Shown here piece by piece: positions 4,463 through 19,329 of a stretch of 19,329 nt of DNA; position 1 is the stretch's first letter, and every line of letters starts with the position of its first letter. Made by a program: the position numbers and the translations under genes. The DNA lies in the IMG/VR virus record IMGVR_UViG_2802429248_000011, positions 1-19,329 of that record. The stretch is one strand, 5' to 3'. Below the pieces are notes generated by a model. The model searched no databases and had not been told where the DNA came from. It saw only the letters and a program-made list of their open reading frames with translations. This DNA comes from a virus (taxonomy: Duplodnaviria > Heunggongvirae > Uroviricota > Caudoviricetes).

Positions 4463-4611
4463 TAAGCAGACTCATTGTGTTTAGGGACATTGTACTGGAA
4501 GAAAACATTTTAAACATCAGGCAAATAACTAAGTCACCAGCTAAATAATAAGTTAACAGACATGGGTCCCGGGATGAGGTTCAACATCACCATTGCCCCA
4601 TTTAAAGCACA

Positions 4612-4637
4612 AAACCCGCTCATCAGCGGGTTTTCTA
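4612..4637 (+). terminator. Intrinsic terminator, plus strand
   Basis: AAACCCGC-TCATCA-GCGGGTTT followed by TTCTAATTTCTTT. Confidence 0.6.
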
Positions 4638-5049
4638 ATTTCTTTCTAAACATCAGATATACAAAGCCCATCATTGAGGGAATCTTATCCATATTTTTTG
4701 AAAAATGCAAGCATCACGTTGCCATCTTCATTGAAAAACCTTTATCGTGTTACTTTTATCAATTGCACTTCAGCATAGAGTTATCCCAGGCAGCACTTTA
4801 AAGACTTCTACATTACACACACCTTGTCTCCCCTTCTCGTCATATCTGCAAGACCGATATGCATGACGCAGTACATACGCTGAACTGCTTTATCCATCAG
4901 CATATTCTAGTGCTAAAGCGACTTCAGTAGCAGAAGCAAAATTCTGCTACTGTGCCAAACAGGAGTAAACGTCATTTTATGTAATGTTGATTGAGTGGTC
5001 ATAGTATCACCTCAATAACAGCTCTTCGCCCTATCATTGAAAGCATATC

Positions 5050-5058
5050 TGCTATAAT
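5050..5058 (+). promoter_or_regulatory. Extended -10 promoter element (TGcTATAAT)
   Basis: TGCTATAAT lies about 32 nt upstream of the ATG at 5090; no good -35 hexamer, consistent with an extended -10 promoter. Confidence 0.35.
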
Positions 5059-5089
5059 TAAAAAGCCACTTAACATCAGGACTTCAAAC

Positions 5090-5275
5090 ATGACTTCAAA
5101 TCAATCTGAAAACGAAATAGTTAATACTGTCAAAAAATATGCATCATGTGCTGACGATGCTTTGCAGGCAGGCAAAGAAAACGTTAAAGATAAATTTAGA
5201 AATTATCCACTGACTAGCGTGGTGGTCGCTCTAAGCATAGGGTTAACGCTTGGTTTTATTATTGGCAGAAAATAA
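5090..5275 (+). CDS. Small C-tail-anchored membrane protein (ElaB/YqjD/DUF883-like)
   Basis: 61 aa MTSNQSENEIVNTVKKYASCADDALQAGKENVKDKFRNYPLTSVVVALSIGLTLGFIIGRK. AGGA Shine-Dalgarno 8 nt upstream; C-terminal TM anchor ending in basic residues as in the DUF883 family. Confidence 0.55.
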   Translation: MTSNQSENEIVNTVKKYASCADDALQAGKENVKDKFRNYPLTSVVVALSIGLTLGFIIGRK

Positions 5276-5338
5276 TCTTAAGCCTCCCATAAGTCGTACA
5301 CAATCACATCTACCAATTAATGTTCCATTAGTAAAAAA

Positions 5339-5357
5339 CCACCTCCTGTGGAGGTGG
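5339..5357 (-). terminator. Intrinsic terminator (strong on minus strand, weak on plus)
   Basis: CCACCTCC-TGT-GGAGGTGG: perfect 8-bp stem, A6 on the plus side upstream (T6 on the minus strand after the stem), TTT on the plus side. Confidence 0.5.
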
Positions 5358-6403
5358 TTTAAGGATAGCAACAAAACACAACCTACTTTAAACGGCTATA
5401 TTCTGCTATATCTAAATAATAGGTTCTCTTTTATCATCCGGTGAAAAAGGGTTCAATGGTTGCCCCTCATCAGGACGCTCAACGGGCTCATCATCAGGCT
5501 TACGGTCATCAAAATCTGGATGTTCTGACATATTCCACCCTAGTATTTTTATGCAGGAAAGATTATTTACTCTTTCCGGTTGTCTTTTTTATTATCCTTA
5601 CCCTTACTATCCTCATTGTTTTTATTCCTGTCATGAGATTTTTCATTTGAATCACTTACATATAATGTATTCATGGGGACTCCAGTTTTTTAACAGCACA
5701 ATGCTGTATCTGTAATTATAGATGCAATTAATCATTATGGTATGTATGTTTCATGCACAAATCAGAAACGCATCTAGTGCTTTAATTAATATGGATTTTA
5801 TTGCTGTAGATTTACAAAAATTTTCATAATTAACCAGCAATATAAGACAAATATCTCATAACATGAGGGAAATCAAGCTCATTTAAAGCAATTTATAATT
5901 TTCATCCTACTATTTTCCCTACACTGCCAACACCAGTTTCGTCGCAACACTCTGACAAGACACCTATAAAATCAGTTTCGTTATCACCTTAATTTTCTTC
6001 ATGGGTAACAAACCGGTAATACATCGATAGCCTGATTGATGCACGTTACTGTTACCTCTTCCCTGCATCAGGATGGCTTCCCAAGATGATATGGTTAATC
6101 ACACTGGAACATTCACGCATAACCGTTTCCTTCATATCCTGCCGTTTTAGCATGTCTTTTCCCCTTCTTGTTAATATCAATGACTAACACAAATCTAAAA
6201 AAGCCAGCAATGTAAAAAAACTGCATTCACGGCAACCAGAATGGTTACCGTTCTGCACAAAGTTTATGTCCACAAAAAAACCACTCTGCGCGGCTTATTG
6301 ATATTTTCCACCGGTATGCATATAAGGCTCATCATTGGAAAACTCTTTGCACGTTTCCTTAGAAAATACAATCGTTATGTCGCCATCGTTCGGTGAAAAT
6401 CTT

Positions 6404-7156
6404 TTATCTTGTCACTTTTCTCAGTTGTGCTTCTGCATACGCTTCTTCCTGCCAGCACTTTGTTACCAGTTTATCAATGACGTCCGCATACCCCTTGTAC
6501 CACTGATAATCTGTCAGGTCCGGTACCAACTTCTGGACATGACGTCGTGCCAGTGTGGTCGGTAAACGACTAAACCTGTTTCCATTACAACGCCCACAAA
6601 TCTTATAAACCGGTACGCCATGAAGCCGGGTTCTTTTTTCATCCAGGACAATACCTTTACCCTTACACCCTCTGCACGCTGTGCTGACTTCGCCCTTACC
6701 ATGGCAATGCTGACATAGTTCCTTCCCCCATTCTTCCTTGATAACAGATTCCCCACTTCTGTAGTGTTTCACCACTTCGCGCAATACATTATGAAATCCC
6801 GTACCTGCACAATGTTCACAGCGAGCCTTACTTGCCGCAGACCTGGAATAATCAGCAAAGGCAAAATTCACAAGGTAAGGGATGATCTGTAACCGGGTTT
6901 CTTCACTCAATTTGTTCAATATCGGGTTATCCAGTGCCATCGCGTAATTGAGCAGACCTTCAATCGCAAACTGAGGGTTCTGAACACCAACTTTTGCCAG
7001 AAATAAGGCAAACCCAAGCGGTGCTTTCGACTGCACCATCCCCTGCGCAGCCATCACATCCGTAATTGTTAAACCACCAGAGCCTGTCGCCGGTGCGTCA
7101 TCGCTCAGTTTTGGTGATTTCGGGGAGTAATATTTCGGTAAGACTTCAAGGTTCAT
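6404..7156 (-). CDS. Q: Late-gene antiterminator Q (lambda Q family)
   Basis: Translation from ATG 7156 (GGAGA Shine-Dalgarno) begins MNLEVLPKYYSPKSPKLSDDAPATGSGGLTITDVMAAQGMVQSK..., closely paralleling the lambda Q N-terminus as recalled. Cys-rich zinc-binding pairs (CEHCAGTG, CQHCHGKG, CRGCKGKG, CGRCNGN). Longest ORF is 6404..7198. Confidence 0.88.
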   Translation of the reverse strand: MNLEVLPKYYSPKSPKLSDDAPATGSGGLTITDVMAAQGMVQSKAPLGFALFLAKVGVQNPQFAIEGLLNYAMALDNPILNKLSEETRLQIIPYLVNFAFADYSRSAASKARCEHCAGTGFHNVLREVVKHYRSGESVIKEEWGKELCQHCHGKGEVSTACRGCKGKGIVLDEKRTRLHGVPVYKICGRCNGNRFSRLPTTLARRHVQKLVPDLTDYQWYKGYADVIDKLVTKCWQEEAYAEAQLRKVTR

Positions 7157-7169
7157 GCTCGTTCTCCAC

Positions 7170-8165
7170 TTACGCCAGCACGCCAATTGCCAGCGCACGA
7201 TCGATAAAACGAAATATCAGCTTCAGCTGGGAGCCATACTTCTCTTCAAATGCCACGGTATCCGCATGCAGCTCGTCGTGATGCTTTCTGCACAAAGGCA
7301 ACACAAAGAGGTCATGCGCTTTTGTAGCCATTCCACCCTGACCGTGGCCTATCAGGTGGTGGGGATCATCAGCAGGCTTTCCACAACATGCACACGGCTG
7401 TGTCTTAACCCAGCGCGTGTACTTTTCGTTAACCCAGCGGCGACGTTTGGGGCGTAACATAAAAGACTCCGGCGACTCCGGATCCACTTTCAGCGCCAGC
7501 ACCTTTTTCGCTTTATCCTGGATAATGCTGGTGGCAGGAACCGAAGGCACAAGGTCACTTTCCCGGGTGACAGACGGCACAACAGGCTTCGGTAATCTCA
7601 GTGCCTTACGGGCTGCACTTTCCGGTAAGGCATCCGCCAGGTCATTACGAATCAGCCACCAGCACAGTTCCGGCATTGTCACAACGTGACTATCATCAAA
7701 ACCGAGATCCCGACGCACAACAGACAACACCCAACGGGCACAGTTATCCGTTGCCATTGATTCCAGCCGTTCCGTGAACTGATCGCGCAGCTGGTTATCG
7801 CAGTGCCAGCACAGACGGATTGCGCCCGGGGCGTGTCGCATTGTGGTCATGTTCTCGCTGTGCCAGTCGGAATGAGGCCACTGGCAGCCCTTTTCACGAA
7901 GTAACCAGCTTTCAAGACATTCCACGCCACCAGCACGACGGATCACTGCCTCATTGCGGAACACGGCCCGAACGGCAGGATCATCCGCCAGCGGTTGTGA
8001 TGCCGCCGGAACGGCACCACTGGCGAAAGATGAATAACGCTCCGGCTCAGGCTCCAGCAGGACACGCCCCTGCATAAACAGGGGCATCAGCTCTGAACCT
8101 GGCCTGAACAATACGATCCCCATACGCGGGGCAATTTCAGGGGTCAGCAGTGCTCTCACGGTCAC
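7170..8165 (-). CDS. DUF968-like protein with C-terminal HNH/zinc-finger-like Cys/His motif; start codon uncertain
   Basis: 331-aa ORF. C-terminal ...TQPCACCGKPADDPHHLIGHGQGGMATKAHDLFVLPLCRKHHDELH... resembles the DUF968 family found just upstream of Q in E. coli lambdoid prophages (memory-based). Several candidate starts. Confidence 0.7.
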   Translation of the reverse strand: MTVRALLTPEIAPRMGIVLFRPGSELMPLFMQGRVLLEPEPERYSSFASGAVPAASQPLADDPAVRAVFRNEAVIRRAGGVECLESWLLREKGCQWPHSDWHSENMTTMRHAPGAIRLCWHCDNQLRDQFTERLESMATDNCARWVLSVVRRDLGFDDSHVVTMPELCWWLIRNDLADALPESAARKALRLPKPVVPSVTRESDLVPSVPATSIIQDKAKKVLALKVDPESPESFMLRPKRRRWVNEKYTRWVKTQPCACCGKPADDPHHLIGHGQGGMATKAHDLFVLPLCRKHHDELHADTVAFEEKYGSQLKLIFRFIDRALAIGVLA

Positions 8166-8211
8166 CTCAGCGAACGGTATTGCATGAACGCAGAAGAAAA
8201 AAATTCAGCCA

Positions 8212-8469
8212 TCACGCAGTAAACTCCTTCACCAGCGTTTCAAACTGGCTTACCTGGCCTTCCAGTTCCGCCACGCAATCCACCAGCTCATCCACCGCCT
8301 TTTGTGTGCGGTGTTTTGCCTGCAGCAGATCACGCAGCGCCGGAGTAAGCTGCTTGCAGAGCGTATCCTTTGCCACGCTCGTTTTTTCCATCTGTTCAGC
8401 ACAACGAAGCATCTCCTGTGCCTGCCGACGAAGTTGTTCCGGTGAAACAGTGGTTGTTCTGTTATTCAA
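8212..8469 (-). CDS. Hypothetical small coiled-coil protein (85 aa)
   Basis: ORF MNNRTTTVSPEQLRRQAQEMLRCAEQMEK... whose TTG start overlaps the DnaB-like stop (TTGA), suggesting translational coupling; no recognised family. Confidence 0.45.
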   Translation of the reverse strand: MNNRTTTVSPEQLRRQAQEMLRCAEQMEKTSVAKDTLCKQLTPALRDLLQAKHRTQKAVDELVDCVAELEGQVSQFETLVKEFTA

Positions 8470-9866
8470 AATAAACGCTCCGTTTTACTGCCCGACATGC
8501 GTTTATTGCTGTATCTGCGCGGATTGCCCGGAGTCATGGGTGTGGAAAGAACCCGGGCACTCTCCTGGTCCACAGGCAGAAAATGTCCGTTATAAAAACG
8601 CCGGTAAATCGTCCCCAGAGAACCGTTACGTTGTTTCGTGATATTGATTTCTGCGATGCCCCTGGCCTGCGTATCCGGGTTGTACACTTCATCCCTGTAA
8701 AGCATCAGAATGATGTCTGCATCCGCCTCTATTTCTCCGGAATTTTTCAGGTCCGAGTTCATGGGGCGTTTATTGGGTCTGGATTCCACGCCGCGGGAGA
8801 GCTGGCTAAGAGCAATCAGCGGAAAACCGCCGGATTTTGCCAGGCTTTTAAGTCCCTTTGAGATTTCCCCCACCGCAAGGTCGTGACGCCCCGTGCTGCG
8901 GGTTTTAATCAGGCCGAGGTAATCGACCACCACCAGCGCCGTTTCCGGGTGTTTCATCCGGTGGTGCTTCGTGGTTGCACATATCTCATCAATGGTCAGG
9001 TTTGCCTGGTCCACCATCCAGATATTACGCCCCGTCATTCGTCCCACGCCCTGCGAGAAACGCGCCCAGTCTTCATCTTCAAAACGGGCAACAGACTTAA
9101 GACGTGATACCGGCATTCCTCCAGCCGCAGACACCATACGTTCACCAATCTGGATGTTCGACATCTCCATGGTGAACAGAAGCACACCATGCCCCTGCTC
9201 AGTCACCTTGTCGATGATGTCCAGCGCAAGTTCGGTTTTCCCCATCGAAGGACGGGCGGCAATGAATACCAGGTCTCCGGGCTCCATACCGCCCGTTTTT
9301 GCGTCCAGTTCATCAATACCGGTCATCAGCGCCCTGGATTTCTCCAGTCCCTGATTGCGGCATTCAACACGGTCGACCACTTCCGGAAGGACATCATCAA
9401 TGTGAACCGGCTGAATGACGCCCTTTCCTGTCGACAGTGTGACCATCATGTTCTGCGCATCCTTCAGAGCATCCTCGGCTGCTTCACAGGTATGCGCATC
9501 ACGTAAATTCTGTAATGCTTCAGTCAGTGTTTTTTCTGCATCGCGCAGTGCGGCATTTCGCCGCAGCGCTGCAACATAGTGCTCCAGTGAAGACTTCACC
9601 CAGGTTTTACGCCCGGTGTCGGTAATCACCGGGGCAAGTTCCGGCATCTCATTGCACAGCAGCACGGGGTCAATGACGCCGGATACGCGAGCCTGTCTGC
9701 AAATCCCCGCGTAAATATCCCTGTACTGACGCACGAAAAAGACATCCGCCGGAAGCGTGGCCAGAATATCCATCACTTCCGGATCAGCCCCACGCAGAAA
9801 AAACGCGCCAATCACGGCACCTTCCAGGTCATCGTTACGCCATGCCGGATTTGTCGTTTTTGTCAT
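8466..9866 (-). CDS. Replicative DNA helicase, DnaB-like
   Basis: 466 aa from ATG 9866 (ATGA overlap with the upstream DnaC-like stop). Walker A ...FIAARPSMGKTELAL... and DnaB C-terminal RecA-like domain motifs. Confidence 0.9.
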   Translation of the reverse strand: MTKTTNPAWRNDDLEGAVIGAFFLRGADPEVMDILATLPADVFFVRQYRDIYAGICRQARVSGVIDPVLLCNEMPELAPVITDTGRKTWVKSSLEHYVAALRRNAALRDAEKTLTEALQNLRDAHTCEAAEDALKDAQNMMVTLSTGKGVIQPVHIDDVLPEVVDRVECRNQGLEKSRALMTGIDELDAKTGGMEPGDLVFIAARPSMGKTELALDIIDKVTEQGHGVLLFTMEMSNIQIGERMVSAAGGMPVSRLKSVARFEDEDWARFSQGVGRMTGRNIWMVDQANLTIDEICATTKHHRMKHPETALVVVDYLGLIKTRSTGRHDLAVGEISKGLKSLAKSGGFPLIALSQLSRGVESRPNKRPMNSDLKNSGEIEADADIILMLYRDEVYNPDTQARGIAEINITKQRNGSLGTIYRRFYNGHFLPVDQESARVLSTPMTPGNPRRYSNKRMSGSKTERLF

Positions 9867-10753
9867 GCTGCCACACCTCTGATATGCGCACGGTAGCTTT
9901 CCCAACCAAACACCAGGCAGTTACACCCACCATCAGTAACGCGATCCACAATCCGTTCACCAATGGATTCTTTAAGCTGTTCAAACGTCAGGTTGCTGAT
10001 CAAAATTGTCGGTAAAACGCTTTCGTAACGCGCATTTATGATTTCCTGCAGGATGGTTATCTCTGTAGGCGTGCCGAACTGCACACCAACCTCATCAATG
10101 ATCAGCAGGTTCAGTGAGGCGAAATGAGCGAGAACTTCATCCTCGGTACGCTCTGAATTGTGGCGCCAGGTATTTTTCACAGCGCGGGTCAGTCGCATAA
10201 CATCCGTAATTTCGACGGTCGCCTGGTGGTGGCGAATAATATTTTTTGCCATTGATACAGCCAGATGATTTTTCCCGGTACCACAATTGCCAATCATGAC
10301 CATGCTGGTACCCGCAGCAAGACACTTCTCCCATGAACCGGCATAGCGCCGACAAGCCTCAAGATTTCTCTGTGCGTCAGCATTCACCGCCTGATAATTC
10401 TCAAACTCGCAGTTCTGGAAGCGGCGGGCAATACCAGCCCTGTCGAGTAATTCATGAACTTTCAGGATGCGTAACGCCTCCTGTACCTGATCCAGCTCAT
10501 TCGCAATGCAGGTCGGGCAACCAGACACCCGTTTGATGGTTTCCCCACGAACATCTGGCCCTTTCAACACCAGACGTGTGTATTTCCCGTGTTTCTCACA
10601 CTCAGCAGTATCCTCGCTTGTCAGCCAGTGTTCACAGCGCCACGGACGCTTCCCGACACGGGCAAACTGCATCTCCTCCTCCAGTTCCGCCCTGCGGTTG
10701 AGCAATTGCGCTTTGTCGTGTTGTGCGTAGTGTTTTTTTAACTGTTCAAACAT
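9863..10753 (-). CDS. Helicase loader, DnaC/IstB-like AAA+ ATPase
   Basis: 296 aa. Walker A GNCGTGKNHLA and Walker B LLIIDEVG; GAGGTGA Shine-Dalgarno before ATG 10753. Confidence 0.88.
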   Translation of the reverse strand: MFEQLKKHYAQHDKAQLLNRRAELEEEMQFARVGKRPWRCEHWLTSEDTAECEKHGKYTRLVLKGPDVRGETIKRVSGCPTCIANELDQVQEALRILKVHELLDRAGIARRFQNCEFENYQAVNADAQRNLEACRRYAGSWEKCLAAGTSMVMIGNCGTGKNHLAVSMAKNIIRHHQATVEITDVMRLTRAVKNTWRHNSERTEDEVLAHFASLNLLIIDEVGVQFGTPTEITILQEIINARYESVLPTILISNLTFEQLKESIGERIVDRVTDGGCNCLVFGWESYRAHIRGVAA

Positions 10754-10772
10754 TGTTCATCACCTCGAAAAA

Positions 10773-11582
10773 TCACCAGTTGAAGTTCGTTGAACCGTAG
10801 TCCTGCTCACTGAATCCCGAGATCGGGAGGCCGGTAGTTCGCCCACCTCCGGGAGCGGCTGGCTGTTGCCAAGATTCCTCGAAGTGACGATCGGGTCCAA
10901 AGAACGTCGCAGCCTGCTTCACGAACTGTGTGCCGATATTTCCGGTAGCTCGTACCCAGGCGGCATACCGCTTCACGCCATCAAGCATGGTCTCCGGTTT
11001 TATTCCCTCCCTGATACGGGCTTTCCAGGCTTTGAAGGCTGCTGACTTGGAATTGCCACCGGCACGTTTGGGATATTCCTGCCAGGCCTGTTCAAATTCC
11101 GGTGAATATTCCTGTCGGGCAGAACGCGCTGGTGCAGACGCGTCAGCGGATGCGCCAATAGTTGATTCATTGACTGGTTCTTTGACTGGTTCAAAAGAGT
11201 GACTGGTTCTGGGTGAATCTCCTGCACTACCCCCTAGTGCAACTCCTGCACCACCTGGTGAATTTGTTGCACTAGGTAGTGAATTATTTGCACTACCACC
11301 TAGTGAATCTTTTGCACCATCAAGACGAAGAAGATAAATATTGCTCGAGTTGCCTTTTTCACCTTTCCGGGAAACTTTTTTTACCAGTCCCGATTCACAA
11401 AGAGCCGTAATATGATTCATCACAGAACGTTTGCTAATCTCGCACTGATCAGCAATATGCTGATAGCTGGGCCAGCACTCGCCCTGATCGCTGGCATTAT
11501 CAGCCAGCTTAATCAGAACCAGTTTTCGCAATGGATTCCCCACACGAATTTTCATCGCTTTAACCATCAGCTCCATGCTCAT
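10773..11582 (-). CDS. Replication initiator (lambda O-like; N-terminal winged-HTH, low-complexity linker, C-terminal domain)
   Basis: 269 aa. GGGAGG Shine-Dalgarno before ATG 11582. Direct repeats with internal dyad symmetry (iterons) lie in the linker-coding part of the gene, as in lambda O/ori. Confidence 0.8.
   Translation of the reverse strand: MSMELMVKAMKIRVGNPLRKLVLIKLADNASDQGECWPSYQHIADQCEISKRSVMNHITALCESGLVKKVSRKGEKGNSSNIYLLRLDGAKDSLGGSANNSLPSATNSPGGAGVALGGSAGDSPRTSHSFEPVKEPVNESTIGASADASAPARSARQEYSPEFEQAWQEYPKRAGGNSKSAAFKAWKARIREGIKPETMLDGVKRYAAWVRATGNIGTQFVKQAATFFGPDRHFEESWQQPAAPGGGRTTGLPISGFSEQDYGSTNFNW
11223..11310. repeat. Origin-of-replication iterons (four ~20-22 bp repeats with internal dyad symmetry) inside the initiator gene
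   Basis: TGCACTACCCCCTAGTGCAA / TGCACCACCTGGTGAATT / TGCACTAGGTAGTGAATT / TGCACTACCACCTAGTGAAT in tandem. Adjacent at 11165-11215 are three copies of TGACTGGTTC. Confidence 0.7.
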
Positions 11583-11803
11583 AGAGCACCTCCCAGGCGT
11601 TTAAACATTTTTCCGGACTGAAACGCCATCAACGGATAGCTAATGGTGTAGTTACGCCCCAGTAATTCACACACAACTTTCTGGCTTTCGGTGCTGACCA
11701 GGCAAACCCGCAGAACGTGACCGTTGCTGGTGGCGAACCACTGCCCCACACGGGGGCAACGGTTGTATCGGTGATACAGGGAATTAACGATGTAGCGGAT
11801 CAT
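11579..11803 (-). CDS. Hypothetical protein (74 aa)
   Basis: GGAGGTG Shine-Dalgarno; ATGA overlaps with both the upstream ORF and the initiator gene downstream; no recognised family. Confidence 0.55.
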   Translation of the reverse strand: MIRYIVNSLYHRYNRCPRVGQWFATSNGHVLRVCLVSTESQKVVCELLGRNYTISYPLMAFQSGKMFKRLGGAL

Positions 11804-11994
11804 GGACGCACCTCCGCCGTAGTTACGTATTTAACCGGGCTACCTTTCATTGAGATGGTTTCACACATCTCTGCCGCTTTCAGTTCCGCCGTTTTTCTGG
11901 ATTTATAGCGACGGTGCCAGACAGATACATCCGTGCGAACTGATACATCGTTTCTGTATTCCGTAGTGGAGATGATGATTTCGTAACTAATCAT
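11800..11994 (-). CDS. Hypothetical protein (64 aa)
   Basis: GGGAGG Shine-Dalgarno 7 nt before ATG 11994, which overlaps the upstream stop (ATGA); MISYEIIISTTEYRNDVSVRTDVSVWHRRYKSRKTAELKAAEM... Confidence 0.55.
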   Translation of the reverse strand: MISYEIIISTTEYRNDVSVRTDVSVWHRRYKSRKTAELKAAEMCETISMKGSPVKYVTTAEVRP

Positions 11995-12653
11995 GGGCGT
12001 ACCTCCCATTGATTACGGCGAAAAGCAGTGTGATTCAGGCTGGTTTCAGCCTCATGGAATGCTCCAATGCAGCTCTCGTAGTACCGCATTGTGCGTAGAC
12101 TTAACCCAAGCTGAAGCATCATCAGGCCATCAAGGGTGATGTAATAACCACGCAGGGAGTCACCATAGATGTGGTAAGTACCCGGTATGAAGTTGCGGGT
12201 AAAAAATTCGCGCGAGCAGTTCAGATACTCGATTTTGTCGACGATGTTCTGGTGCATGCGCTTAAAGTGGCAGGCAACATGCAGGGAGAAAATAACAGCT
12301 TTGCCGTTGACGACTTCGATTTTGAGGAATGGGGAAGTTGGGACTGTAGCCATGATGGCAGCCTCCTTGATCGGTGAAAAACTTCCACCACCGGAGCTGC
12401 GAAACTCATGGGTGGTGAACTGAACAGGGTTCGCAGTACCGGCGATCAAGGAAACCGGCGAGCCTTTCGGCTCCCCTGCCCAGCCCACCATAATTCTGGC
12501 GTGCGTGAGCGCAGACGATAAAAAAGACGCTGGCGCGTCGTATATCGCCTTGATCAATTCCGGGCTGCGACCCCCGGCACCCGCTTTATAAGGTGCTGGA
12601 ACAGTGTAACGTCCCGAAATTACAGAATCAATATTTTGGCTTGAAACATTCAT
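11991..12653 (-). CDS. Hypothetical protein with Gly/Ser/Pro/Ala-rich N-terminal region and folded C-terminal domain; start codon uncertain (open frame extends to 12887; strong internal Shine-Dalgarno + ATG at 12353)
   Basis: 897-nt open frame. The first in-frame ATG (12653) lacks a Shine-Dalgarno; an internal ATG at 12353 has AAGGAGG 8 nt upstream. C-terminal domain ...YYITLDGLMMLQLGLSLRTMRYYESCIGAF... is not confidently assignable. Confidence 0.5.
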   Translation of the reverse strand: MNVSSQNIDSVISGRYTVPAPYKAGAGGRSPELIKAIYDAPASFLSSALTHARIMVGWAGEPKGSPVSLIAGTANPVQFTTHEFRSSGGGSFSPIKEAAIMATVPTSPFLKIEVVNGKAVIFSLHVACHFKRMHQNIVDKIEYLNCSREFFTRNFIPGTYHIYGDSLRGYYITLDGLMMLQLGLSLRTMRYYESCIGAFHEAETSLNHTAFRRNQWEVRP

Positions 12654-12677
12654 ATGCTTACTGGTATTTTTACTAAC

Positions 12678-12767
12678 GCAAATGTTCTTGGATGTTACTG
12701 GCTTACTTCTTTGTGAGGTTGCCTTTACTAACGTTGAGCGAGCCGGGTCACTACCCGGCTTTTTTTC
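12678..12767 (+). ncRNA. Candidate oop-like antisense small RNA (about 90 nt)
   Basis: Promoter-like TTGAAA (12641-12646), 18-bp spacer, TG-extended -10 TGgTATTTT (12662-12670), and a strong plus-strand terminator ending at 12767. Antisense to the Rha-2 stop and the region upstream of the next gene. Confidence 0.3.
12741..12767 (+). terminator. Intrinsic terminator oriented against the pR-type operon (antisense terminator)
   Basis: Plus strand AGCCGGGT-CACT-ACCCGGCT followed by T7; on the minus strand the hairpin is preceded by A7 and has no U-tract. Confidence 0.6.
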
Positions 12768-13473
12768 ACCGCTGCCAACCAATAACCTGAAATAACCCCA
12801 TTTTCGGGTGATACCAGCGAGTCCCTCGCGGTTCTGCTTCCGCCATAACCTGATGGAAAGCAGCCATAAACGGTTCCACGGCAACAATTGCGCGACGTGA
12901 CAACAATCCGTCCGGCGTCATGAACTCATGGGTGTCTGTAGGAATTTGATAAGCGTTCACCAGATTGCGGCATTTATCATCTGACAAACCGGTTTTCGCT
13001 TTCAGTTGGCGATATCCGGCATAGCCCTCACGAATGTTGCCCTTTTTGATTTGCTCAACTGTTTCGGCAACGTGGCTGACTTTTTCTTCCACCTGAGTGA
13101 TCCGTTTCTGCTGACGAACAGCTTCAAGAGCCATCGCGGCAACCATTTCGATTTCGCTCATTGGCTTACGGATCTGTTCTTCCAGTTCGCGCCAGCGATC
13201 TACTAGGCGGGCTGTGAATTCGGGACAAAGCTGTGCGACGACAATGATGCTGTCGCGCTTACCTTGTTCGCCTTCGAAGATGTAAGCACCTACATTTCGT
13301 TTTAATCCTAAGTTGTTGATTATTTCGAAATTCGCCATTGGCGCACTTCGAATAATCCCCTTATCCATGAGCCTTTCAATGCTGCGCTTAACATCTTTGT
13401 GTTGGCTGCCCACCAACTCTGCGATTTCAAGGCTGGTCATGGATGCTTTGCCGTTAAAAATTGCGGTGTTCAT
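12766..13473 (-). CDS. Rha-family phage regulatory protein (antirepressor-like)
   Basis: 235 aa. N-terminal ...MTSLEIAELVGSQHKDVKRSIERLMDKG... fits the Rha domain pattern; its ATG overlaps the cro-like stop (ATGA). Confidence 0.78.
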   Translation of the reverse strand: MNTAIFNGKASMTSLEIAELVGSQHKDVKRSIERLMDKGIIRSAPMANFEIINNLGLKRNVGAYIFEGEQGKRDSIIVVAQLCPEFTARLVDRWRELEEQIRKPMSEIEMVAAMALEAVRQQKRITQVEEKVSHVAETVEQIKKGNIREGYAGYRQLKAKTGLSDDKCRNLVNAYQIPTDTHEFMTPDGLLSRRAIVAVEPFMAAFHQVMAEAEPRGTRWYHPKMGLFQVIGWQR

Positions 13474-13733
13474 TGTTGGTCTCCTGTGGGCTTGTCATCC
13501 TCTGTGTGCGCTAAGCTTGGATGTGGAAAAAGCTCTGGTAGGTCTGGACGAAATTCATACGCTTGGATCTTTCCGTCGACAGCTGCAACCAATAACGGCA
13601 CAAATTCTGGTGAAATCTTGTTCTTGCAGTTCAACCAATCGCAGACTGTTGACTGGGCCTTTCCGCATCGCTTGGCTAAGGCTTGCTGACTTCCAAGAAT
13701 CTCAATAGCTTTCTCTATGGCTTTATGTTTCAT
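13470..13733 (-). CDS. cro: Cro-like repressor (Cro/YdaS-family HTH)
   Basis: 87 aa from ATG 13733 (GGAG Shine-Dalgarno): MKHKAIEKAIEILGSQQALAKRCGKAQSTVCDWLNCKNKISPEFVPLLVAAVDG.... Divergent from the CI gene. Longest ORF extends to 13784. Confidence 0.8.
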   Translation of the reverse strand: MKHKAIEKAIEILGSQQALAKRCGKAQSTVCDWLNCKNKISPEFVPLLVAAVDGKIQAYEFRPDLPELFPHPSLAHTEDDKPTGDQQ

Positions 13734-13755
13734 AATCGCATCTCCTATTGAACGC

Positions 13756-13784
13756 ATAATAACAACAGGAAAAGCGATATTCAA
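13756..13784 (-). promoter_or_regulatory. pR-type promoter for the cro-like operon
   Basis: On the minus strand, TTGAAT (-35), a 17-bp spacer and TATTAT (-10), about 20 nt upstream of the cro-like Shine-Dalgarno. Confidence 0.5.
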
Positions 13785-13803
13785 CGTTAAACCTAGAACA
13801 TTT

Positions 13804-13817
13804 ATCGGAAAGCCGAT
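13804..13817. promoter_or_regulatory. Palindromic operator candidate in oR (ATCGGAAAGCCGAT); a weaker related site at 13765-13778
   Basis: 14-bp dyad matching two sites beside the pL-type promoter (ATCGATAAACCGAT, ATCGGTAAACCTAT); located between divergent cI and cro start regions. Confidence 0.45.
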
Positions 13818-13852
13818 AGACTAGCCAAGATAGAGAGGGGAGGAAAATCGCA

Positions 13853-14545
13853 ATGACATTTTCAGAACGACTTGATTTAGCTATGCGCAACGCAAAATTT
13901 ACGCAAGGTAGGCTGGCCAAAGAAGTGGGTATGGCTCAGTCCAGTGTCAATCAACTACTTAACAAAGCCAACGGTTCCAGAAAAACAGTCGAAATAGCAA
14001 AAGTTTTGGGCGTTAACCCGGAATGGCTCGCATCGGGTGTTGGCCCAATGGAAATCGTGACCTCTGCAGACTCACACCAAATACGTAACATTTCTGAAGA
14101 TTGGGTTACTGATTCGTATGTCGTGGATGTTTTAGACATCAGATATAGTTGCGGACCTGGCAGTTATAACTCTGATTTTCCTGACATTGTCAGATCTATA
14201 GCGATAGAACCAGGATACGCATCAAGAGTTTTTGGCGGCAGACCAGCATCAGCAATCAAAGCAATAAACGCCCACGGCGACAGTATGAAAGGCACAATAG
14301 ACCCTGAAGACTTGGTATTTGTAGATGTATCAGTTCGCACATTTAATGGTGATGGTATATACGCCTTTACATACTCTGGAACATCGCACATCAAAAGACT
14401 TCAAAAAATCAAAGATACTCTAACGGTGATATCTGACAACCCAGCTTACAAGGATTGGGCTATCGAACCGGAAGACTTTGAACAACTTCACATTGACGGA
14501 AAAGTAATTGTCAGTTGGCCTATGACACTACACCGTTTTGCATAA
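13853..14545 (+). CDS. cI: CI-type prophage repressor (N-terminal HTH, C-terminal LexA-like S24 autopeptidase domain)
   Basis: 230 aa. N-terminal HTH (..QGRLAKEVGMAQSSVNQLL..) and C-terminal S24 motifs (..HGDSMKGTIDPEDLVFVD.. and ..IKRLQK..). GGAGG Shine-Dalgarno; divergent from cro. Confidence 0.9.
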   Translation: MTFSERLDLAMRNAKFTQGRLAKEVGMAQSSVNQLLNKANGSRKTVEIAKVLGVNPEWLASGVGPMEIVTSADSHQIRNISEDWVTDSYVVDVLDIRYSCGPGSYNSDFPDIVRSIAIEPGYASRVFGGRPASAIKAINAHGDSMKGTIDPEDLVFVDVSVRTFNGDGIYAFTYSGTSHIKRLQKIKDTLTVISDNPAYKDWAIEPEDFEQLHIDGKVIVSWPMTLHRFA

Positions 14546-14563
14546 GCAAAAATCATTTAACCC

Positions 14564-14589
14564 GCCCACTCTTAAGTGGGCTTTTTTTT
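14564..14589 (+). terminator. Intrinsic terminator after the repressor gene
   Basis: GCCCACT-CTTA-AGTGGGC followed by T8. Confidence 0.75.
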
Positions 14590-14596
14590 GGAAAAA

Positions 14597-14638
14597 ATCG
14601 ATAAACCGATTGACAGGCGAAATCGGTAAACCTATTAT
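14597..14638 (+). promoter_or_regulatory. pL-type early-left promoter with two operator dyads
   Basis: Consensus TTGACA (14610-14615), 17-bp spacer, TATTAT (14633-14638). Dyads ATCGATAAACCGAT (14597-14610) and ATCGGTAAACCTAT (14622-14635) overlap the -35 and the spacer/-10. Confidence 0.6.
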
Positions 14639-14687
14639 TATGGCATAGGTATCGAACTCACCAAAGCAATTATAGAGGATGAGAAAA

Positions 14688-15185
14688 ATGTCATCGTATA
14701 TGGGGTTACCAACAAATCAGCACGATGCTCTTGAGAATATTCAGCTCTTAGTCGGGGCTGGTGCACTACTGTATAGCAGCAATAACCCTGAGTTAATTGA
14801 ACTTGCCAGCTCCATCCTGGCTGTAACTCAAAAATATAGCCTCACAGCGTCGCGTTTATGCAAACAAAATTTAGCTATTAATTCCCAGAATCGGATTAGC
14901 ACTCAACGCGAAGCCTGCGGCTTAACAACCGCCGAACTCGCCAGGCTGCTCGATCTCGATGAAGAAATTATCATCCAGTGGGAGAGCGGAGAGTATGAAC
15001 CAACCATCAGCATGCTTATCCCACTGGCAAATATTCTTGGCTGCGATCCGATGTGGCTGTTAACTGGCGAGGTTACTCCTCCGGAGCAACCAAAAAGTGA
15101 GGAGCAGCAACACCATGACGCATCTCAACAAGTTTGCTCCTTATCTCGCGAAGCTCTTCTACGGAAGAACCAATACCAATGGTGA
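14688..15185 (+). CDS. HTH (XRE-family) protein, first gene of the early-left operon; N-terminal domain of unknown function
   Basis: 165 aa from ATG 14688 (AGAGGA Shine-Dalgarno). XRE-type HTH in residues ~95-150 (..CGLTTAELARLLDLDEEIIIQWESGEYEPTISMLIPLANILGCDPMWLLTG..). Occupies the position of N in lambda but is not N-like. Confidence 0.7.
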   Translation: MSSYMGLPTNQHDALENIQLLVGAGALLYSSNNPELIELASSILAVTQKYSLTASRLCKQNLAINSQNRISTQREACGLTTAELARLLDLDEEIIIQWESGEYEPTISMLIPLANILGCDPMWLLTGEVTPPEQPKSEEQQHHDASQQVCSLSREALLRKNQYQW

Positions 15186-15313
15186 CATAATCACCGCTTC
15201 GCCCCTCAAGGTACATGCGAACATTTTTATCAATCATTGCGGAAACAGTCTCAATATGAAAACACTTCTGAGACTCGCTATATAGCAGAACATATAAGTC
15301 AGCTGAGGAAGCC

Positions 15314-15679
15314 GTGAAAAAGTTCGAAAACATAACTGCTCTCCATGTTGATGACTTTGATTATACAAACCCGGAACTTCTCCCGGAGGTTGTAAAGGCA
15401 ATAGATGTTGCCGATATAGTGATTAGAGGAAAGAGAATCGTCAAAAACAGGCTCGCATGCACTTCAGGAGCAATGACAGAAACAACCTCACAACAAGATG
15501 ATTATGAAGGCATTTGTCTGGAGCCGGACTCATTTGCGGTAAATGTTTATCATTTATTGCATGCAACACAGGTATTACATATGTCAAGTAATCACGAAAC
15601 AAAAACACTTGGCAGCGAAATTCTGAATTTTGCATGTGAATATGCAAAAGCTGCTGCCGAAAAAGAATTAGCACAATAA
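15314..15679 (+). CDS. Hypothetical protein (121 aa)
   Basis: GTG start with GAGGAA upstream; balanced composition; the antisense frames over its body are Leu/His/Cys-rich and look non-coding. Confidence 0.5.
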   Translation: MKKFENITALHVDDFDYTNPELLPEVVKAIDVADIVIRGKRIVKNRLACTSGAMTETTSQQDDYEGICLEPDSFAVNVYHLLHATQVLHMSSNHETKTLGSEILNFACEYAKAAAEKELAQ

Positions 15680-15875
15680 CAATAAATATTCCCTGAATGT
15701 TTATTACGGTTTTATCGCCGGGGATTGTTGCAACCTTTATTCGCAGGTGATTATGTTATGACTTTCCTGAAACATAAGGCATCGTATAAAACTGCCTGCC
15801 TCATTGTACAACATGGAGATTCTTATCTTCATATAGCCAACCTGTATTTGCGCAAAGCATATGGGAGATAAGTCA

Positions 15876-16064
15876 ATGGAAGAAAAACAACAAAACATAA
15901 CACATAAAAAAGTAAGAGTGTTGCTAACCATTGAAAATGGGAAGGTAATTCACTCAAAACATCTGTTGGATAATGAATTTGTTGGCTGCATGGATACATT
16001 TTTGTTGGTGGTAAAAAGAGCGGGTTACACTATTATTCCACCAGCAAAGGAGCAAACATTATGA
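15876..16064 (+). CDS. Hypothetical protein (62 aa)
   Basis: GGGAG Shine-Dalgarno before ATG 15876; stop overlaps the next ATG (ATGA). Confidence 0.5.
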   Translation: MEEKQQNITHKKVRVLLTIENGKVIHSKHLLDNEFVGCMDTFLLVVKRAGYTIIPPAKEQTL

Positions 16065-16642
16065 ATCATTCAGAGTTCCGACCAGAAGTTACGCCACACG
16101 GTATAAAAATTGGCAATACAACCATAGATTATGCCGAGGCCGTACAGCGACTTAATGATGGTGAATACGATAATCCAAATTCTCAAGGTTTAAGAATTAT
16201 GCAGTGTATTGCTGAAGCCGATGATGCCGGATTACTGGGACGATTTTCAGTCGATATGAAAGTTGCTCAATGGCGATGGCTGTATGTGACAACATTTATA
16301 AATGAAGAGGAAGACAAGAACGGCACCATTGATATCCCTAACGATAATGGAACTACAGATCGCGCAGTTATTTACAAGGGTAAACATGGTTGCCTGAGTA
16401 TCTACCCAGGGCCACTTCGCATTGCCCTGCAAAACCATGTCGAATGGAGATTCATTGAAAAATATGGCGAAGCTGAAGGCATGGGGCGAGTTCTGTTTCT
16501 CTATCAAAAAATGCTCATCGCAGATCCTGATAATGGCTTCATTGTCTCTGCTATGGGACGAGAAGGGCTTGAACTTCTTCTGGATGAAATGATTCACGAT
16601 CTGAATACTCATGGTATGCCAGAAACACCATTGGCACATTAA
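16061..16642 (+). CDS. Hypothetical protein (193 aa), acidic
   Basis: AGGAG Shine-Dalgarno 8 nt upstream; ATGA coupling to the upstream ORF; no recognised motif. Confidence 0.7.
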   Translation: MNHSEFRPEVTPHGIKIGNTTIDYAEAVQRLNDGEYDNPNSQGLRIMQCIAEADDAGLLGRFSVDMKVAQWRWLYVTTFINEEEDKNGTIDIPNDNGTTDRAVIYKGKHGCLSIYPGPLRIALQNHVEWRFIEKYGEAEGMGRVLFLYQKMLIADPDNGFIVSAMGREGLELLLDEMIHDLNTHGMPETPLAH

Positions 16643-16644
16643 AC

Positions 16645-16926
16645 ATGTCAAATCAGAATAAAATTAATGTATTTCAGGTTGAATCAAAACATAAAACACC
16701 TGTGATAAAACACGTTCGCCGCCATACACTCATCTATACGCCAGAAGAGTTTATGGCAATTCCAATGATAAAGAAGTTTATTCGTGATAATCCCGATCAC
16801 ATTGCTATAGATAAACATAACGGAGAAATAATGTTATCACGCGAACTTGCCGAAATTTACTGTAACGTGAATAACGGTAAAAAATTGAAAAAGGCAATCC
16901 GAAAAAAATCAGGAGTAACAAAATGA
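16645..16926 (+). CDS. Hypothetical protein (93 aa) with Lys-rich C-terminal tail
   Basis: Starts 2 nt after the upstream stop and overlaps the next start (ATGA); C-terminus ..NNGKKLKKAIRKKSGVTK. Confidence 0.62.
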   Translation: MSNQNKINVFQVESKHKTPVIKHVRRHTLIYTPEEFMAIPMIKKFIRDNPDHIAIDKHNGEIMLSRELAEIYCNVNNGKKLKKAIRKKSGVTK

Positions 16927-17291
16927 ATAGCATCGAGACACAATGTTCCTCATCTGAAGTTATGAACTATGACCCGAATCTGACGTTGTACGGACGCATG
17001 GCAAAACAAACTGTTCTATTAACTTTCGGGCTATGGGAATACCGCGAAACATTCGAAGTTTCTGTCGGCGGCAATCTGACCGGACTGGATGTTATCAGTT
17101 GCGCCATTGAAAGCCTGTACGCAACGCTGCCTTATGAAGAAGTCGAGGATGAGCGCGATATCATAGCCACCATTAATATCGGCGGCATGGAATGCAAGGA
17201 TGAAAACCTGAACGGAGAACTCTGGCTTGCCGGGATGCTTATCTCGGCAGAAATCATCAGTATTGAACCCGCTACAAACATACGACTCTGA
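16923..17291 (+). CDS. Hypothetical strongly acidic protein (122 aa)
   Basis: AGGAG upstream; about 20 acidic versus about 6 basic residues (..LPYEEVEDERDIIATINIGGMECKDENLNGE..). Confidence 0.62.
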   Translation: MNSIETQCSSSEVMNYDPNLTLYGRMAKQTVLLTFGLWEYRETFEVSVGGNLTGLDVISCAIESLYATLPYEEVEDERDIIATINIGGMECKDENLNGELWLAGMLISAEIISIEPATNIRL

Positions 17292-17322
17292 AGTTCTCAC
17301 AACTCAGGGAGCAGGAGAAAAA

Positions 17323-17565
17323 ATGTTCGCTTTGATTAATCAGGGGCAACTGTATACCGATAGTGCTGGCTACCCGATAAAAATTATTCGCTGCATAAAC
17401 AACACTGTGTTGTACAGAAGAATGGATGGGCGAACACAGTCGGTAAAAATAAACGATTTTAATGAACTGTTTGAACGAATCGATCACCAGGAATACCGAC
17501 AAATTCTGGCAGAAACAGAGCAGGAAGCTCATCTGAAAAAATTACGGGTCATGAAAAGGAAGTAA
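17323..17565 (+). CDS. Small protein resembling the DUF4222 family common next to xis/int in lambdoid prophages
   Basis: 80 aa from ATG 17323 (AGGAG Shine-Dalgarno): MFALINQGQLYTDSAGYPIKIIRCINNTVLYRRMDGRTQSVKINDFNELFERI...; family assignment from memory. Confidence 0.55.
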   Translation: MFALINQGQLYTDSAGYPIKIIRCINNTVLYRRMDGRTQSVKINDFNELFERIDHQEYRQILAETEQEAHLKKLRVMKRK

Positions 17566-17568
17566 AGA

Positions 17569-17715
17569 ATGAATAAAGCGTTTGAGCTATGGGTACGCCA
17601 GCGTTACGGCAATCGCTATGACCTGACGCGAGATGTTGACGGTTTCCACTGTCGTGAAATTGTGAAACGAATGTTTGAAGTGTGGTGTTACTGTCGTGGA
17701 CTGAATGTTGTGTGA
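17569..17715 (+). CDS. Hypothetical small protein (48 aa)
   Basis: AGGAAG Shine-Dalgarno 6 nt upstream; MNKAFELWVRQRYGNRYDLTRDVDGFHCREIVKRMFEVWCYCRGLNVV; its stop overlaps the xis Shine-Dalgarno. Confidence 0.45.
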   Translation: MNKAFELWVRQRYGNRYDLTRDVDGFHCREIVKRMFEVWCYCRGLNVV

Positions 17716-17723
17716 GGTAATGC

Positions 17724-17960
17724 ATGGGCAATGTGATTCAACTGGCTCCCAATGAATGGGTTTGTGAAAGCGTTCTTATCGCAATTACCGGGCTCAAACC
17801 AGGCACAATTCTTCGGGCCCGGAAAGAATGCTGGATGGTTGGAAGAGAGTATATTCACGTATCACCAGACGGTAATCCAAAGCCTTCCAGCGAATGTATG
17901 TATAACAGAAAAGCAATAGATGCCTGGGTCGCTTCAATGAAAAACAAACAACCTGGGTGA
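17724..17960 (+). CDS. xis: Excisionase-like protein (DUF1233-type putative Xis)
   Basis: 78 aa MGNVIQLAPNEWVCESVLIAITGLKPGTILRARKECWMVGREYIHVSPDG... directly upstream of the integrase; GAGGT Shine-Dalgarno. Confidence 0.7.
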   Translation: MGNVIQLAPNEWVCESVLIAITGLKPGTILRARKECWMVGREYIHVSPDGNPKPSSECMYNRKAIDAWVASMKNKQPG

Positions 17961-18015
17961 TTTAATGCCATGAAATATGTAAGCTCGTATCGCTCTTGGG
18001 CGTCTGGAGGTATGA

Positions 18016-19329
18016 ATGGATAAAGTTAAATATCCAACAGGCGTCGAAAACCACGGTGGCACATTGCGCATCTGGTTTAATTTTAAAGGTAAACGTGTCA
18101 GGGAAAATCTTGGTGTCCCTGACACTGCCAAGAACAGGAAGATTGCCGGAGAACTGCGGACATCGGTATGTTTTGCCATCCGCACAGGAAGCTTTGATTA
18201 TGCTGCACAGTTCCCTGACTCCCCTAACCTTCAGGCTTTTGGGGTAAGTAAAAAAGAAATTACGGTGAAAGAACTTGAAGAAAAGTGGCTGGATCTGAAA
18301 CGAATGGAAATCTCTGCAAATGCATTCAATCGTTATGAATCCGTTGCAAGAACGATGGTCCCGAAAATTGGAGGTAGCAGACTGGTGTCAACGGTGACCA
18401 AAGAGGAATTGCTGTATATCAGGAAAGATTTGCTGACCGGATACCAAAATCCAACAAAAGGTAAGGCTCCGGTAAAAGGGCGAAGCGTTATCACAGTAAA
18501 TTATTACATGACGACAATCGCTGGAATGTTTCAGTTTGCTGCAGATCACGGTTACTTAGAAGCAAATCCCTTCCAGGGAATTAAGCCTCTTAAAAGAGCC
18601 AGGGCAGAGCCAGATCCGCTAACTCGTGACGAATTTATTCGCCTGATAGATGCTTGCCGACATCAGCAGACGAAAAACCTGTGGTCATTGGCTGTGTACA
18701 CAGGAATGCGTCACGGTGAACTGGTCTCCCTGGCCTGGGAAGATATCGATCTGAAAGCAGGAACTATTACTATCAGGCGCAATTATACGAAACTCGGTGA
18801 GTTCACTCTACCTAAAACTGAAGCAAGTACAAACAGGGTTGTGCATCTTATCCAGCCCGCTATCAGTGTCCTGAAAAATCAGGCTGAAATGACAAGACTG
18901 GGTAAGCAGCACAACATCAAGGTTCAACTACGTGAATATGGACGTTCAGTGAATCATGAATGTACTTTCGTGTTTAACCCCCAGGTGGTTAGAAAAAGCA
19001 AACAGGTCGGTTTTATCTACAAGGTAGATTCTATTGGCGACTCATGGGAAACAGCCATTAAGCGTGCGGGCATCAGGCACCGGAAAGCATACCAGTCACG
19101 ACACACTTATGCGTGCTGGTCATTATCTGCCGGAGCAAACCCAAGCTTCATTGCCAGCCAGATGGGCCATGCAAGTGCCCAGATGGTGTTCAATGTATAC
19201 GGAGCATGGATGACTGACAGTAATGCAGAACAGATCGCAATGCTGAATCAGAAGCTGGCAGATTATGTCCCAATGATGTCCCATGGTCACCAAAGTGACA
19301 CAAGAGACTTATTAAAATCAGTGGGTTAG
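18016..19329 (+). CDS. int: Tyrosine-recombinase integrase (phage integrase family)
   Basis: 437 aa. C-terminal catalytic region with ..RHTYACWSLSAGANPSFIASQMGHASAQMVFNVYGAW..; GGAGG Shine-Dalgarno; stop codon is the last triplet of the window, so att lies beyond it. Confidence 0.92.
   Translation: MDKVKYPTGVENHGGTLRIWFNFKGKRVRENLGVPDTAKNRKIAGELRTSVCFAIRTGSFDYAAQFPDSPNLQAFGVSKKEITVKELEEKWLDLKRMEISANAFNRYESVARTMVPKIGGSRLVSTVTKEELLYIRKDLLTGYQNPTKGKAPVKGRSVITVNYYMTTIAGMFQFAADHGYLEANPFQGIKPLKRARAEPDPLTRDEFIRLIDACRHQQTKNLWSLAVYTGMRHGELVSLAWEDIDLKAGTITIRRNYTKLGEFTLPKTEASTNRVVHLIQPAISVLKNQAEMTRLGKQHNIKVQLREYGRSVNHECTFVFNPQVVRKSKQVGFIYKVDSIGDSWETAIKRAGIRHRKAYQSRHTYACWSLSAGANPSFIASQMGHASAQMVFNVYGAWMTDSNAEQIAMLNQKLADYVPMMSHGHQSDTRDLLKSVG

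Follow-up and report, generated by a model that had tools for sequence, protein, structure and literature searches.

Three small adjoining open reading frames (ORFs) have been analyzed on the plus strand of a 19,329-nucleotide (nt) stretch of Caudoviricetes DNA, positions 1 to 19,329 of IMG/VR record IMGVR_UViG_2802429248_000011; this whole stretch is called the window below. A preliminary description had read the three as a coupled triad made in stoichiometric amounts, whose strongly acidic last member shares its charge with DNA-mimic anti-restriction proteins of the Ocr/ArdA type. The first, orf193 (16061-16642), encodes from an ATG start a protein of 193 amino acids (aa) modelled as acidic and alpha/beta, with 30 Asp/Glu and 17 Lys/Arg residues (net charge -13, isoelectric point (pI) 4.85), and corresponds to phrog_1515 and gene L06 of phage phiP27. 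The second, orf93 (16645-16926; ATG start, GC content 0.33), encodes a small basic protein of 93 aa (net +10, pI 10.0), whose C-terminal tail, NGKKLKKAIRKKSGVTK, has 8 Lys/Arg in its final 17 residues. The third, orf122 (16923-17291; ATG start), encodes a conserved acidic alpha/beta protein of 122 aa with 20 Asp/Glu and 6 Lys/Arg (net -14, pI 4.05), which belongs to Pfam DUF5406 and phrog_3409 and corresponds to phiP27 L04. Positions, charges and the Lys-rich tail of orf93 thus agree with what had been reported.

The stop codon of orf193 is followed, after a 2-nt gap, by the ATG of orf93, and orf93 and orf122 share an ATGA overlap. The same overlap joins orf193 to the preceding orf67 (15861-16064, plus strand; 67 aa, phrog_340, phiP27 L07), which had been overlooked and by the same criterion makes the group a tetrad. 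Because neighbouring genes are packed alike (adjoining junctions of +3 and +8 nt, and more 4-nt overlaps in related loci), the tight junctions of the trio are generic for this operon. Shine-Dalgarno sequences precede orf193 (AAGGAG) and orf122 (AGGAG), and no ribosome-binding site was found at the start of orf93. Since orf93 lacks such a sequence and starts 2 nt past the stop of orf193, its translation by termination-reinitiation is plausible. An alternative start of orf67 at 15876 has a better Shine-Dalgarno sequence.

The ratio of nonsynonymous to synonymous substitution rates (dN/dS), calculated against a Citrobacter prophage that has the same arrangement and keeps the ATGA overlaps, was 0.12, 0.21, 0.21 and 0.08 for orf193, orf93, orf122 and orf67, respectively. 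Each member of the trio has homologues in other genera, and all three are included in the RefSeq annotation of E. coli O145 FWSEC0002. Because of the low dN/dS, the homologues across genera and this annotation, the three, together with orf67, are judged from sequence comparison to be genuine protein genes under purifying selection and not chance ORFs.

Independent inheritance of the three genes

The trio is not a fixed unit; in related phages its genes come in independent combinations. Of 5,426 complete E. coli genomes, 285 have orf193-like DNA, 215 have DUF5406-like DNA and 14 have orf93. The exact gene arrangement of the window recurs in Escherichia phage ASU11, E. coli O145 FWSEC0002 and Citrobacter sp. 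S-77. In phiP27 and in the yecE-integrated prophages of Shiga toxin-producing E. coli examined (2011C-4251, 28RC1 and O26:H11 FWSEC0001), orf93 is missing and its slot holds a 62-aa membrane-type ORF (orf62) and an SPFH/Band-7 lipoprotein gene. In a Shiga toxin (Stx) 1a phage and Klebsiella phage P18-100, the genes that follow the orf193 homologue are quite different, and DUF5406 is missing. DUF5406 stands without orf193 and orf93 in ten loci; it also does so in the telomere phage phiHAP-1, in jumbo phages of Pseudomonas and in Treponema bins, and the orf93 homologue of Pantoea has no DUF5406 nearby. The steadier pairings are orf67-orf193 and an orf193-family gene followed by orf93, orf67 being the most constant upstream partner of orf193.

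E. coli 06-00048 carries both sets of genes, in the order orf193-orf93-orf62-SPFH-DUF5406. The window aligns with this locus up to 16929 and again from 16962, and between these points 06-00048 has a 1,053-nt cassette (3276-4335 of the extracted locus L016) composed of orf62, a membrane-type ORF with two helices, and the SPFH gene. One ATGAATA, the start of orf122 in the window, opens the cassette and another, the start of DUF5406 in 06-00048, closes it; this 7-nt repeat therefore bounds the cassette and supplies the start codon of whichever gene comes after orf93. Overlaps of 4 nt are also found at the orf93/orf62 and orf62/SPFH junctions of 06-00048. Some loci have the cassette and others lack it, precisely where orf93 meets orf122; the ATGA overlap in the window is thus the empty state of a cassette site.

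This distribution bears on two ways of reading the genes as a unit. One of them extends the preliminary description: the three proteins would be a co-translated stoichiometric trio, in which orf122 is an Ocr/ArdA-type DNA mimic blocking type I restriction-modification and orf93 binds nucleic acid through its Lys/Arg tail. The tight junctions and the presumed early position of the operon speak for it. Against it, the trio co-occurs in at most 14 of the 5,426 E. coli genomes, as compared with more than 200 each for orf193 and DUF5406, the cassette can separate orf93 from orf122, and DUF5406 stands alone in the ten loci mentioned above. For co-oriented, tightly spaced genes, polycistronic expression and probably coupled translation are reasonable, as had been proposed, while a stoichiometric unit does not fit genes that assort independently. 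Taken together with the charge and fold of orf122 discussed below, we hold this trio reading to be quite unlikely.

In the other way, basic orf93 and acidic orf122 would make up a prophage-expressed pair, either type II toxin-antitoxin-like or for defence; a 4-nt overlap between two small, oppositely charged genes is classic for such modules. This was rejected on distribution and is highly improbable: the two genes are not co-inherited (orf93 in 14 and DUF5406 in 215 genomes, and the cassette between them in 06-00048), no toxin, antitoxin or defence match was obtained in PADLOC, Pfam or NCBIfam, and a promoter of their own was not detected, the operon promoter carrying repressor-type operators.

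Promoter-, operator- and terminator-like signals

The operon follows a CI-like repressor gene. Just past this gene, an intrinsic-terminator-like hairpin is found on the plus strand at 14564-14581 (7-pair stem with 5 G-C pairs, then a T8 run, TTTTTTTT), followed on the same strand by a pL-like promoter at 14610-14638 (TTGACA-17-TATTAT), which matches 11 of 12 consensus positions. Operator-like 14-mers at 14597-14610 and 14622-14635 (plus strand) overlap the -35 and -10 elements of this promoter, with 0 and 1 mismatch to ATCGRWAARCCGAT, respectively. A third, ATCGGAAAGCCGAT (13804-13817, plus strand), lies in the intergenic region between the divergent cro-like and CI-like genes and is an exact match to ATCGRWAARCCGAT. 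This 14-mer is partly palindromic; at no more than two mismatches it is matched 5 times in the window as against 0.84 expected, none of 200 shuffles reached 5, and three of the five matches are at immunity-region promoters. These three 14-mers are candidate operators of the CI-like repressor.

Promoter-like sites inside the operon number 5 against 11.4 expected and so show no excess. Because such sites are rarer than chance expectation, a weak match before orf93 (9 of 12 positions, 16631-16659) was rejected as an internal promoter. Rfam gave no match over 13000-19329. By layout, the genes appear to belong to a lambdoid early-left (pL-type) operon, since they lie on one strand between the repressor and xis/int and have a promoter with operators shared with oR. 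As the trio lies downstream of the terminator and of a near-consensus promoter with operator-like 14-mers over its elements, it is probably part of a repressed, early-lytic leftward operon, and the region 14610-14638 would be the equivalent of pL/oL. Such a position suits genes that are expressed early and directed at the host or its defences.

Protein families of orf193 and orf93

orf193 matches phrog_1515 end to end (E 6.2e-92; residues 1-193 against profile positions 12-203 of 203). This family, which includes phiP27 L06, is without a Pfam family or solved relative. An exhaustive hidden Markov model search of 1.84 billion cluster representatives with the orf193 profile found 132 relatives, almost all of them single-domain proteins of about 200 aa. 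Ten relatives were scanned, among them the longer ones (up to 399 aa), and no Pfam domain and hence no informative fusion was obtained. Positions D37, R72, W73, R120, E128, Y148, M151, G166 and the final His are nearly invariant in the family, and the C-terminal tail, predicted to be disordered, has the consensus G-x-P-x-x-P-x-x-H-COOH (16600-16642 in the window). Homologues occupy the same early-left position in Stx1a, Stx2a and Klebsiella phages, and an Aeromonas phage is also among them. The label "polyprenylphenol hydrolase" on some Klebsiella phage copies was rejected, as Pfam gives it no support.

For orf93, only 11 homologue clusters were found among 5.8 billion, from E. coli, Citrobacter (76% identity) and Pantoea (54%), and there was no match in Pfam, PHROG, NCBIfam or PDB. 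Its Lys/Arg-rich tail, which had been pointed out in the preliminary description, is real and conserved: K79-K80-L81-K82-K83-x-I85 (KKLKKAIR) is invariant down to 54% identity. In phage ASU11 (ON416862.2, about 41576-41854; 4876-5154 of the extracted locus L001), the homologue is intact and 99% identical. As the record does not annotate it, gp53 and gp54 appear to be 280 nt apart with no gene between them.

Every orf93 homologue lies directly downstream of an orf193-family gene, the Pantoea case being probable. In Pantoea, BLAST sees no likeness to orf193 in the 170-aa gene upstream of the orf93 homologue. This gene aligns collinearly to a profile of diverse orf193-family members through the terminal P-V-x-His (PVIH; hhalign P 1.6e-4, probability 50%), and the last four codons are also alike at the DNA level. 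It is a probable, very diverged member of the orf193 family.

The DUF5406 family and the anti-restriction question

orf122 matches the full DUF5406 model (PF17400; positions 1-116 of 116, E 2.4e-21, 76.6 bits against a cut-off of 25) and phrog_3409 (E 9.5e-48). Homologues of DUF5406 form 54 clusters, including those from Salmonella, Pseudomonas luteola and Stutzerimonas, and a genome scan adds Citrobacter, Mixta and genome bins labelled Ectothiorhodospiraceae, Pseudohongiella and Treponema. The family is also present in the Halomonas telomere phage phiHAP-1 (ORF30) and in nine Pseudomonas putida phages of about 200 kb, which are presumably virulent because of their size and isolation source. 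In phiHAP-1, the P. putida phages and the Ectothiorhodospiraceae locus, it makes up the C-terminal domain of longer proteins (180-208 aa). Such long proteins are found at 3261-3857 of locus L018 (phiHAP-1 ORF30), 2701-3327 of L019 and 4797-5342 of L005. Their N-terminal parts are weakly alike, and nothing in the window matches them; the idea of a Rosetta-stone fusion, in which these extensions would correspond to orf193 or orf93, was dropped as no similarity was found.

All DUF5406 homologues are acidic (net -8 to -19, median -13), so that the negative charge noted for orf122 in the preliminary description is a conserved trait of its family. Invariant positions include YDPN, Q29, W38, G50-N51 and D93, and an acidic stretch (D93-E99) precedes W101. 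With its full-length model match, and the invariant positions and negative charge in common, nothing sets orf122 apart from the family. The enterobacterial members have a 13-residue N-terminal extension. An AlphaFold model of orf122 (pLDDT 82, pTM 0.74) predicts a beta-hairpin, a helix, three strands, a short helix and a strand. A Foldseek search of this model against BFVD gave matches to uncharacterised phage proteins only.

The likeness to Ocr and ArdA therefore holds for the conserved acidity and fails, as family membership, on both sequence and predicted fold. A Pfam scan at E <=1 gave DUF5406 only for orf122, with neither the Ocr (T7 gp0.3) nor the ArdA family, and nothing relevant for orf193 or orf93. 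Ocr is all-helical; such a fold was ruled out for orf122 by the beta-rich topology of the model, and no fold match to Ocr or ArdA was obtained either. The acidic fraction of orf122 is 16%, which we take to be about half that of Ocr and well below Ocr or ArdA. Beside the acidity of the whole family and the invariant basic tail of orf93, two observations remain in favour of the DNA-mimic trio, namely a C5 DNA-methylase fragment directly upstream of DUF5406 in one Treponema bin and no recognisable anti-restriction gene elsewhere in the window. Beta-rich topology and a 16% acidic fraction count against it.

Searches of other collections were consistent with this. Seven operon proteins had no PADLOC match at E <=0.1, NCBIfam gave no match for orf193, orf93 or orf122, and PDB sequence searches with single sequences and four profiles gave nothing below E 0.1. 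Structure prediction, which had been suggested as a check, yielded confident predicted folds for orf122 and orf193, with no solved relative and no Ocr/ArdA fold. Homology places none of the three in a known non-defence family, and none in a defence family either. The anti-restriction reading thus has no support beyond charge, and a packing that is generic for the operon had been over-read as a stoichiometric triad. We found no papers on DUF5406, PF17400, the PHROG families or these protein accessions.

In other genomes, DUF5406 is often among early DNA-metabolism genes. It lies directly upstream of a gene for single-stranded DNA-binding protein (SSB) in one Treponema genome bin and downstream of a PDDEXK-like nuclease in Mixta, and the C5-methylase fragment mentioned above stands next to it in another Treponema bin. 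The 411-aa gene two positions upstream of DUF5406 in the Treponema locus has no Pfam match, and a RecT-like label for it is a guess only. Such neighbours suggest that orf122 could be a Gam-like or gp5.9-like inhibitor of a host DNA-end nuclease (e.g., RecBCD), in place of a missing gam, with unrelated roles for orf193 and orf93. In the leftward operon within the window, no exo, bet or gam was seen in the ORF list, Pfam or PHROG, and no N either; an acidic, conserved family that is present in jumbo phages presumed virulent also suits such a role. The support is purely positional, however, and comes from heterogeneous neighbourhoods, and Pfam and fold searches gave no similarity to Gam, Abc2 or gp5.9. 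We consider this inhibitor role decidedly improbable.

Prophage context and neighbouring genes

By its gene content and similarity, the whole window is a phiP27/ASU11-like lambdoid prophage of E. coli; over 15800-17700, DNA identity is 96% to ASU11 and 92% to the Stx2e phage phiP27. Genes identified by Pfam on the minus strand are a YdaS-type cro-like gene, Rha, Ash, replication genes (HTH_36, DnaC-like and DnaB), DUF968/HNH, antiterminator Q, lysozyme and Rz. The order on the plus strand is CI-like repressor, helix-turn-helix (HTH) regulator, orf121, orf67, orf193, orf93, orf122, DUF4222 protein, orf48, excisionase and integrase.

The CI-like repressor (13853-14545, plus strand; 230 aa) has an HTH and an S24 peptidase domain (Pfam Peptidase_S24, E 7.5e-17) and matches PHROG 4, transcriptional repressor. 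The first gene of the leftward operon encodes an HTH_3 or "CII-like" regulator (14679-15185, plus strand; 168 aa, Pfam HTH_3 E 1.5e-10, phrog_4836), and the next is orf121 (15314-15679, plus strand; phrog_5451, phiP27 L08), whose product is acidic (net -8). phrog_4587 is matched by the N-terminus of the regulator (residues 3-58) and by the C-terminus of orf121 (residues 57-121), which suggests that these adjacent genes share a duplicated small domain. Downstream of the trio, orf80 (17323-17565, plus strand; 80 aa) encodes a DUF4222 protein of the RgdR family (Pfam E 2.3e-15). RgdR, which carries DUF4222, is a prophage-encoded activator of the type III secretion system of the locus of enterocyte effacement in enterohaemorrhagic E. 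coli O157:H7 (PMC10877973). In those records of related phages and of E. coli that were examined, the DUF4222 gene stands next to that of DUF5406. Then follow orf48 (17569-17715, plus strand), a small conserved ORF with 77-93% identity in related loci, the excisionase gene (17724-17960, plus strand), 100% identical to phiP27 L02, and the gene of a 437-aa tyrosine integrase (18016-19329, plus strand), 97% identical to phiP27 integrase L01, which ends at the window edge.

The region 2850-6400 (3.5 kb), between antiterminator Q and the lysis genes, corresponds to the stx2e position in phiP27. It has no ORF longer than 94 aa, no tRNA and no stx genes, and is 97% identical to phages PhiR63_1 and HannyBb; its equivalent in related phages is annotated with cold-shock proteins CspB and CspF. 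The phiP27 record (NC_003356.1) starts L06 (639 nt) and L04 (444 nt) further upstream, where they overlap adjacent genes. Judged by the window and by the RefSeq annotation of E. coli, shorter forms (582 nt and about 370 nt, respectively) are to be preferred.

Since the trio is sited between the immunity region and xis/int, beside the HTH regulator and the DUF4222/RgdR-type regulator, its products might regulate the phage's own development (lysis-lysogeny, excision control or FtsH/CII modulation) and not act on host defences. The basic orf93 with its conserved tail would suit such a role, and the neighbouring slot in relatives holds an SPFH (HflK/C-like) protein. However, Pfam, NCBIfam and profile searches revealed no DNA-binding domain in orf193, orf93 or orf122, the genes are dispensable among close relatives, and DUF5406 is present in the P. 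putida phages, which, if virulent, make no lysogeny decision. We give developmental regulation an outside chance.

Interpretation and significance

The explanation that we favour, with slightly better than even confidence, is that orf193, orf93 and orf122, together with orf67, are accessory genes of the leftward operon in a temperate phage of the phiP27/ASU11 type, exchangeable one by one, controlled by the repressor and expressed early. In a lysogen, the CI-like repressor bound to the 14-mers over the -35 and -10 elements would shut the near-consensus promoter at 14610-14638, from which the operon would be transcribed early after induction or infection. orf93 would be translated by reinitiation after orf193. 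Each product would most likely be a small non-enzymatic binder of a host target early in the lytic cycle, serving host takeover or counter-defence, and would act singly. In this the genes would be like the non-essential lambda pL genes gam, kil, cIII and ral. Genes for anti-defence and host takeover are frequent among the lambdoid accessory genes between the immunity region and xis/int.

The leading specific idea is that orf122, like DUF5406 in general, is an electrostatic decoy for a nucleic-acid-binding host protein, because both its acidity and the acidic stretch D93-E99 before W101 are conserved. Probable early expression, occurrence in large, presumably virulent phages and the early DNA-metabolism neighbours also fit this idea. 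Because no exo, bet or gam is seen in the operon, a RecBCD-type target fits as well as a restriction enzyme.

Several points weigh against the explanation that we favour. The promoter, operator and terminator calls are consensus matches. Because orf93 homologues always follow an orf193-family gene, the orf193-orf93 pair may be functionally linked, contrary to strict independence. In view of its many conserved polar and aromatic residues (R72, W73, R120, E128 and Y148), orf193 could have catalytic activity in a new fold instead of acting as a binder, and the acidic fraction of orf122 is moderate.

A more far-reaching proposal, to which we assign a low probability, is that DUF5406 is a previously unrecognised family of acidic alpha/beta decoys made early by temperate and virulent phages of Gammaproteobacteria, and possibly of spirochaetes. 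The decoys would neutralise some DNA-binding enzyme that is conserved among hosts, such as a restriction complex, RecBCD or another defence nuclease, and their own fold would have no relation to that of Ocr, ArdA, Gam or gp5.9. In a separate role, orf193 would dock onto a host protein via its disordered P-x-x-P-V-x-His-COOH tail, with orf93 as an occasional partner.

Since orf193 and orf122 are members of catalogued uncharacterised families, and near-identical copies of the genes are already in public phage and E. coli records, the finding is of modest interest. As hypothetical phage genes they form an ordinary set; the slot nevertheless holds three uncharacterised families, for two of which a fold was predicted with confidence and no solved relative was found. 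DUF5406 is the best candidate for follow-up, as it is small, acidic throughout and easy to test, and its wide distribution takes in Stx-converting phages, a telomere phage and Pseudomonas jumbo phages. The main value of the present analysis is that it offers this family as a cheap, well-defined candidate for anti-defence screening. Because these phages are relatives of Shiga-toxin phages, the roles of their early genes bear on induction and host range.

Comparison with known systems

Ocr, ArdA and orf122 are alike as small, acidic, early-expressed proteins of mobile elements. The likeness is in charge and timing only, the early timing of orf122 being deduced from its operon, and its net charge of -14 over 122 aa is, we presume, much weaker than that of Ocr or ArdA. 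The closer parallel is with the non-essential genes of the lambda pL operon (gam, kil, cIII, ral and ea). No sequence relationship between these and the trio was detected, and the phiP27-type operon of the window is without N, exo, bet and gam. The position is the same, however, between the immunity region and xis/int and on the same strand, and in both cases the genes are small, dispensable and mosaic and, for the trio as judged from consensus matches, stand behind a repressor-controlled promoter.

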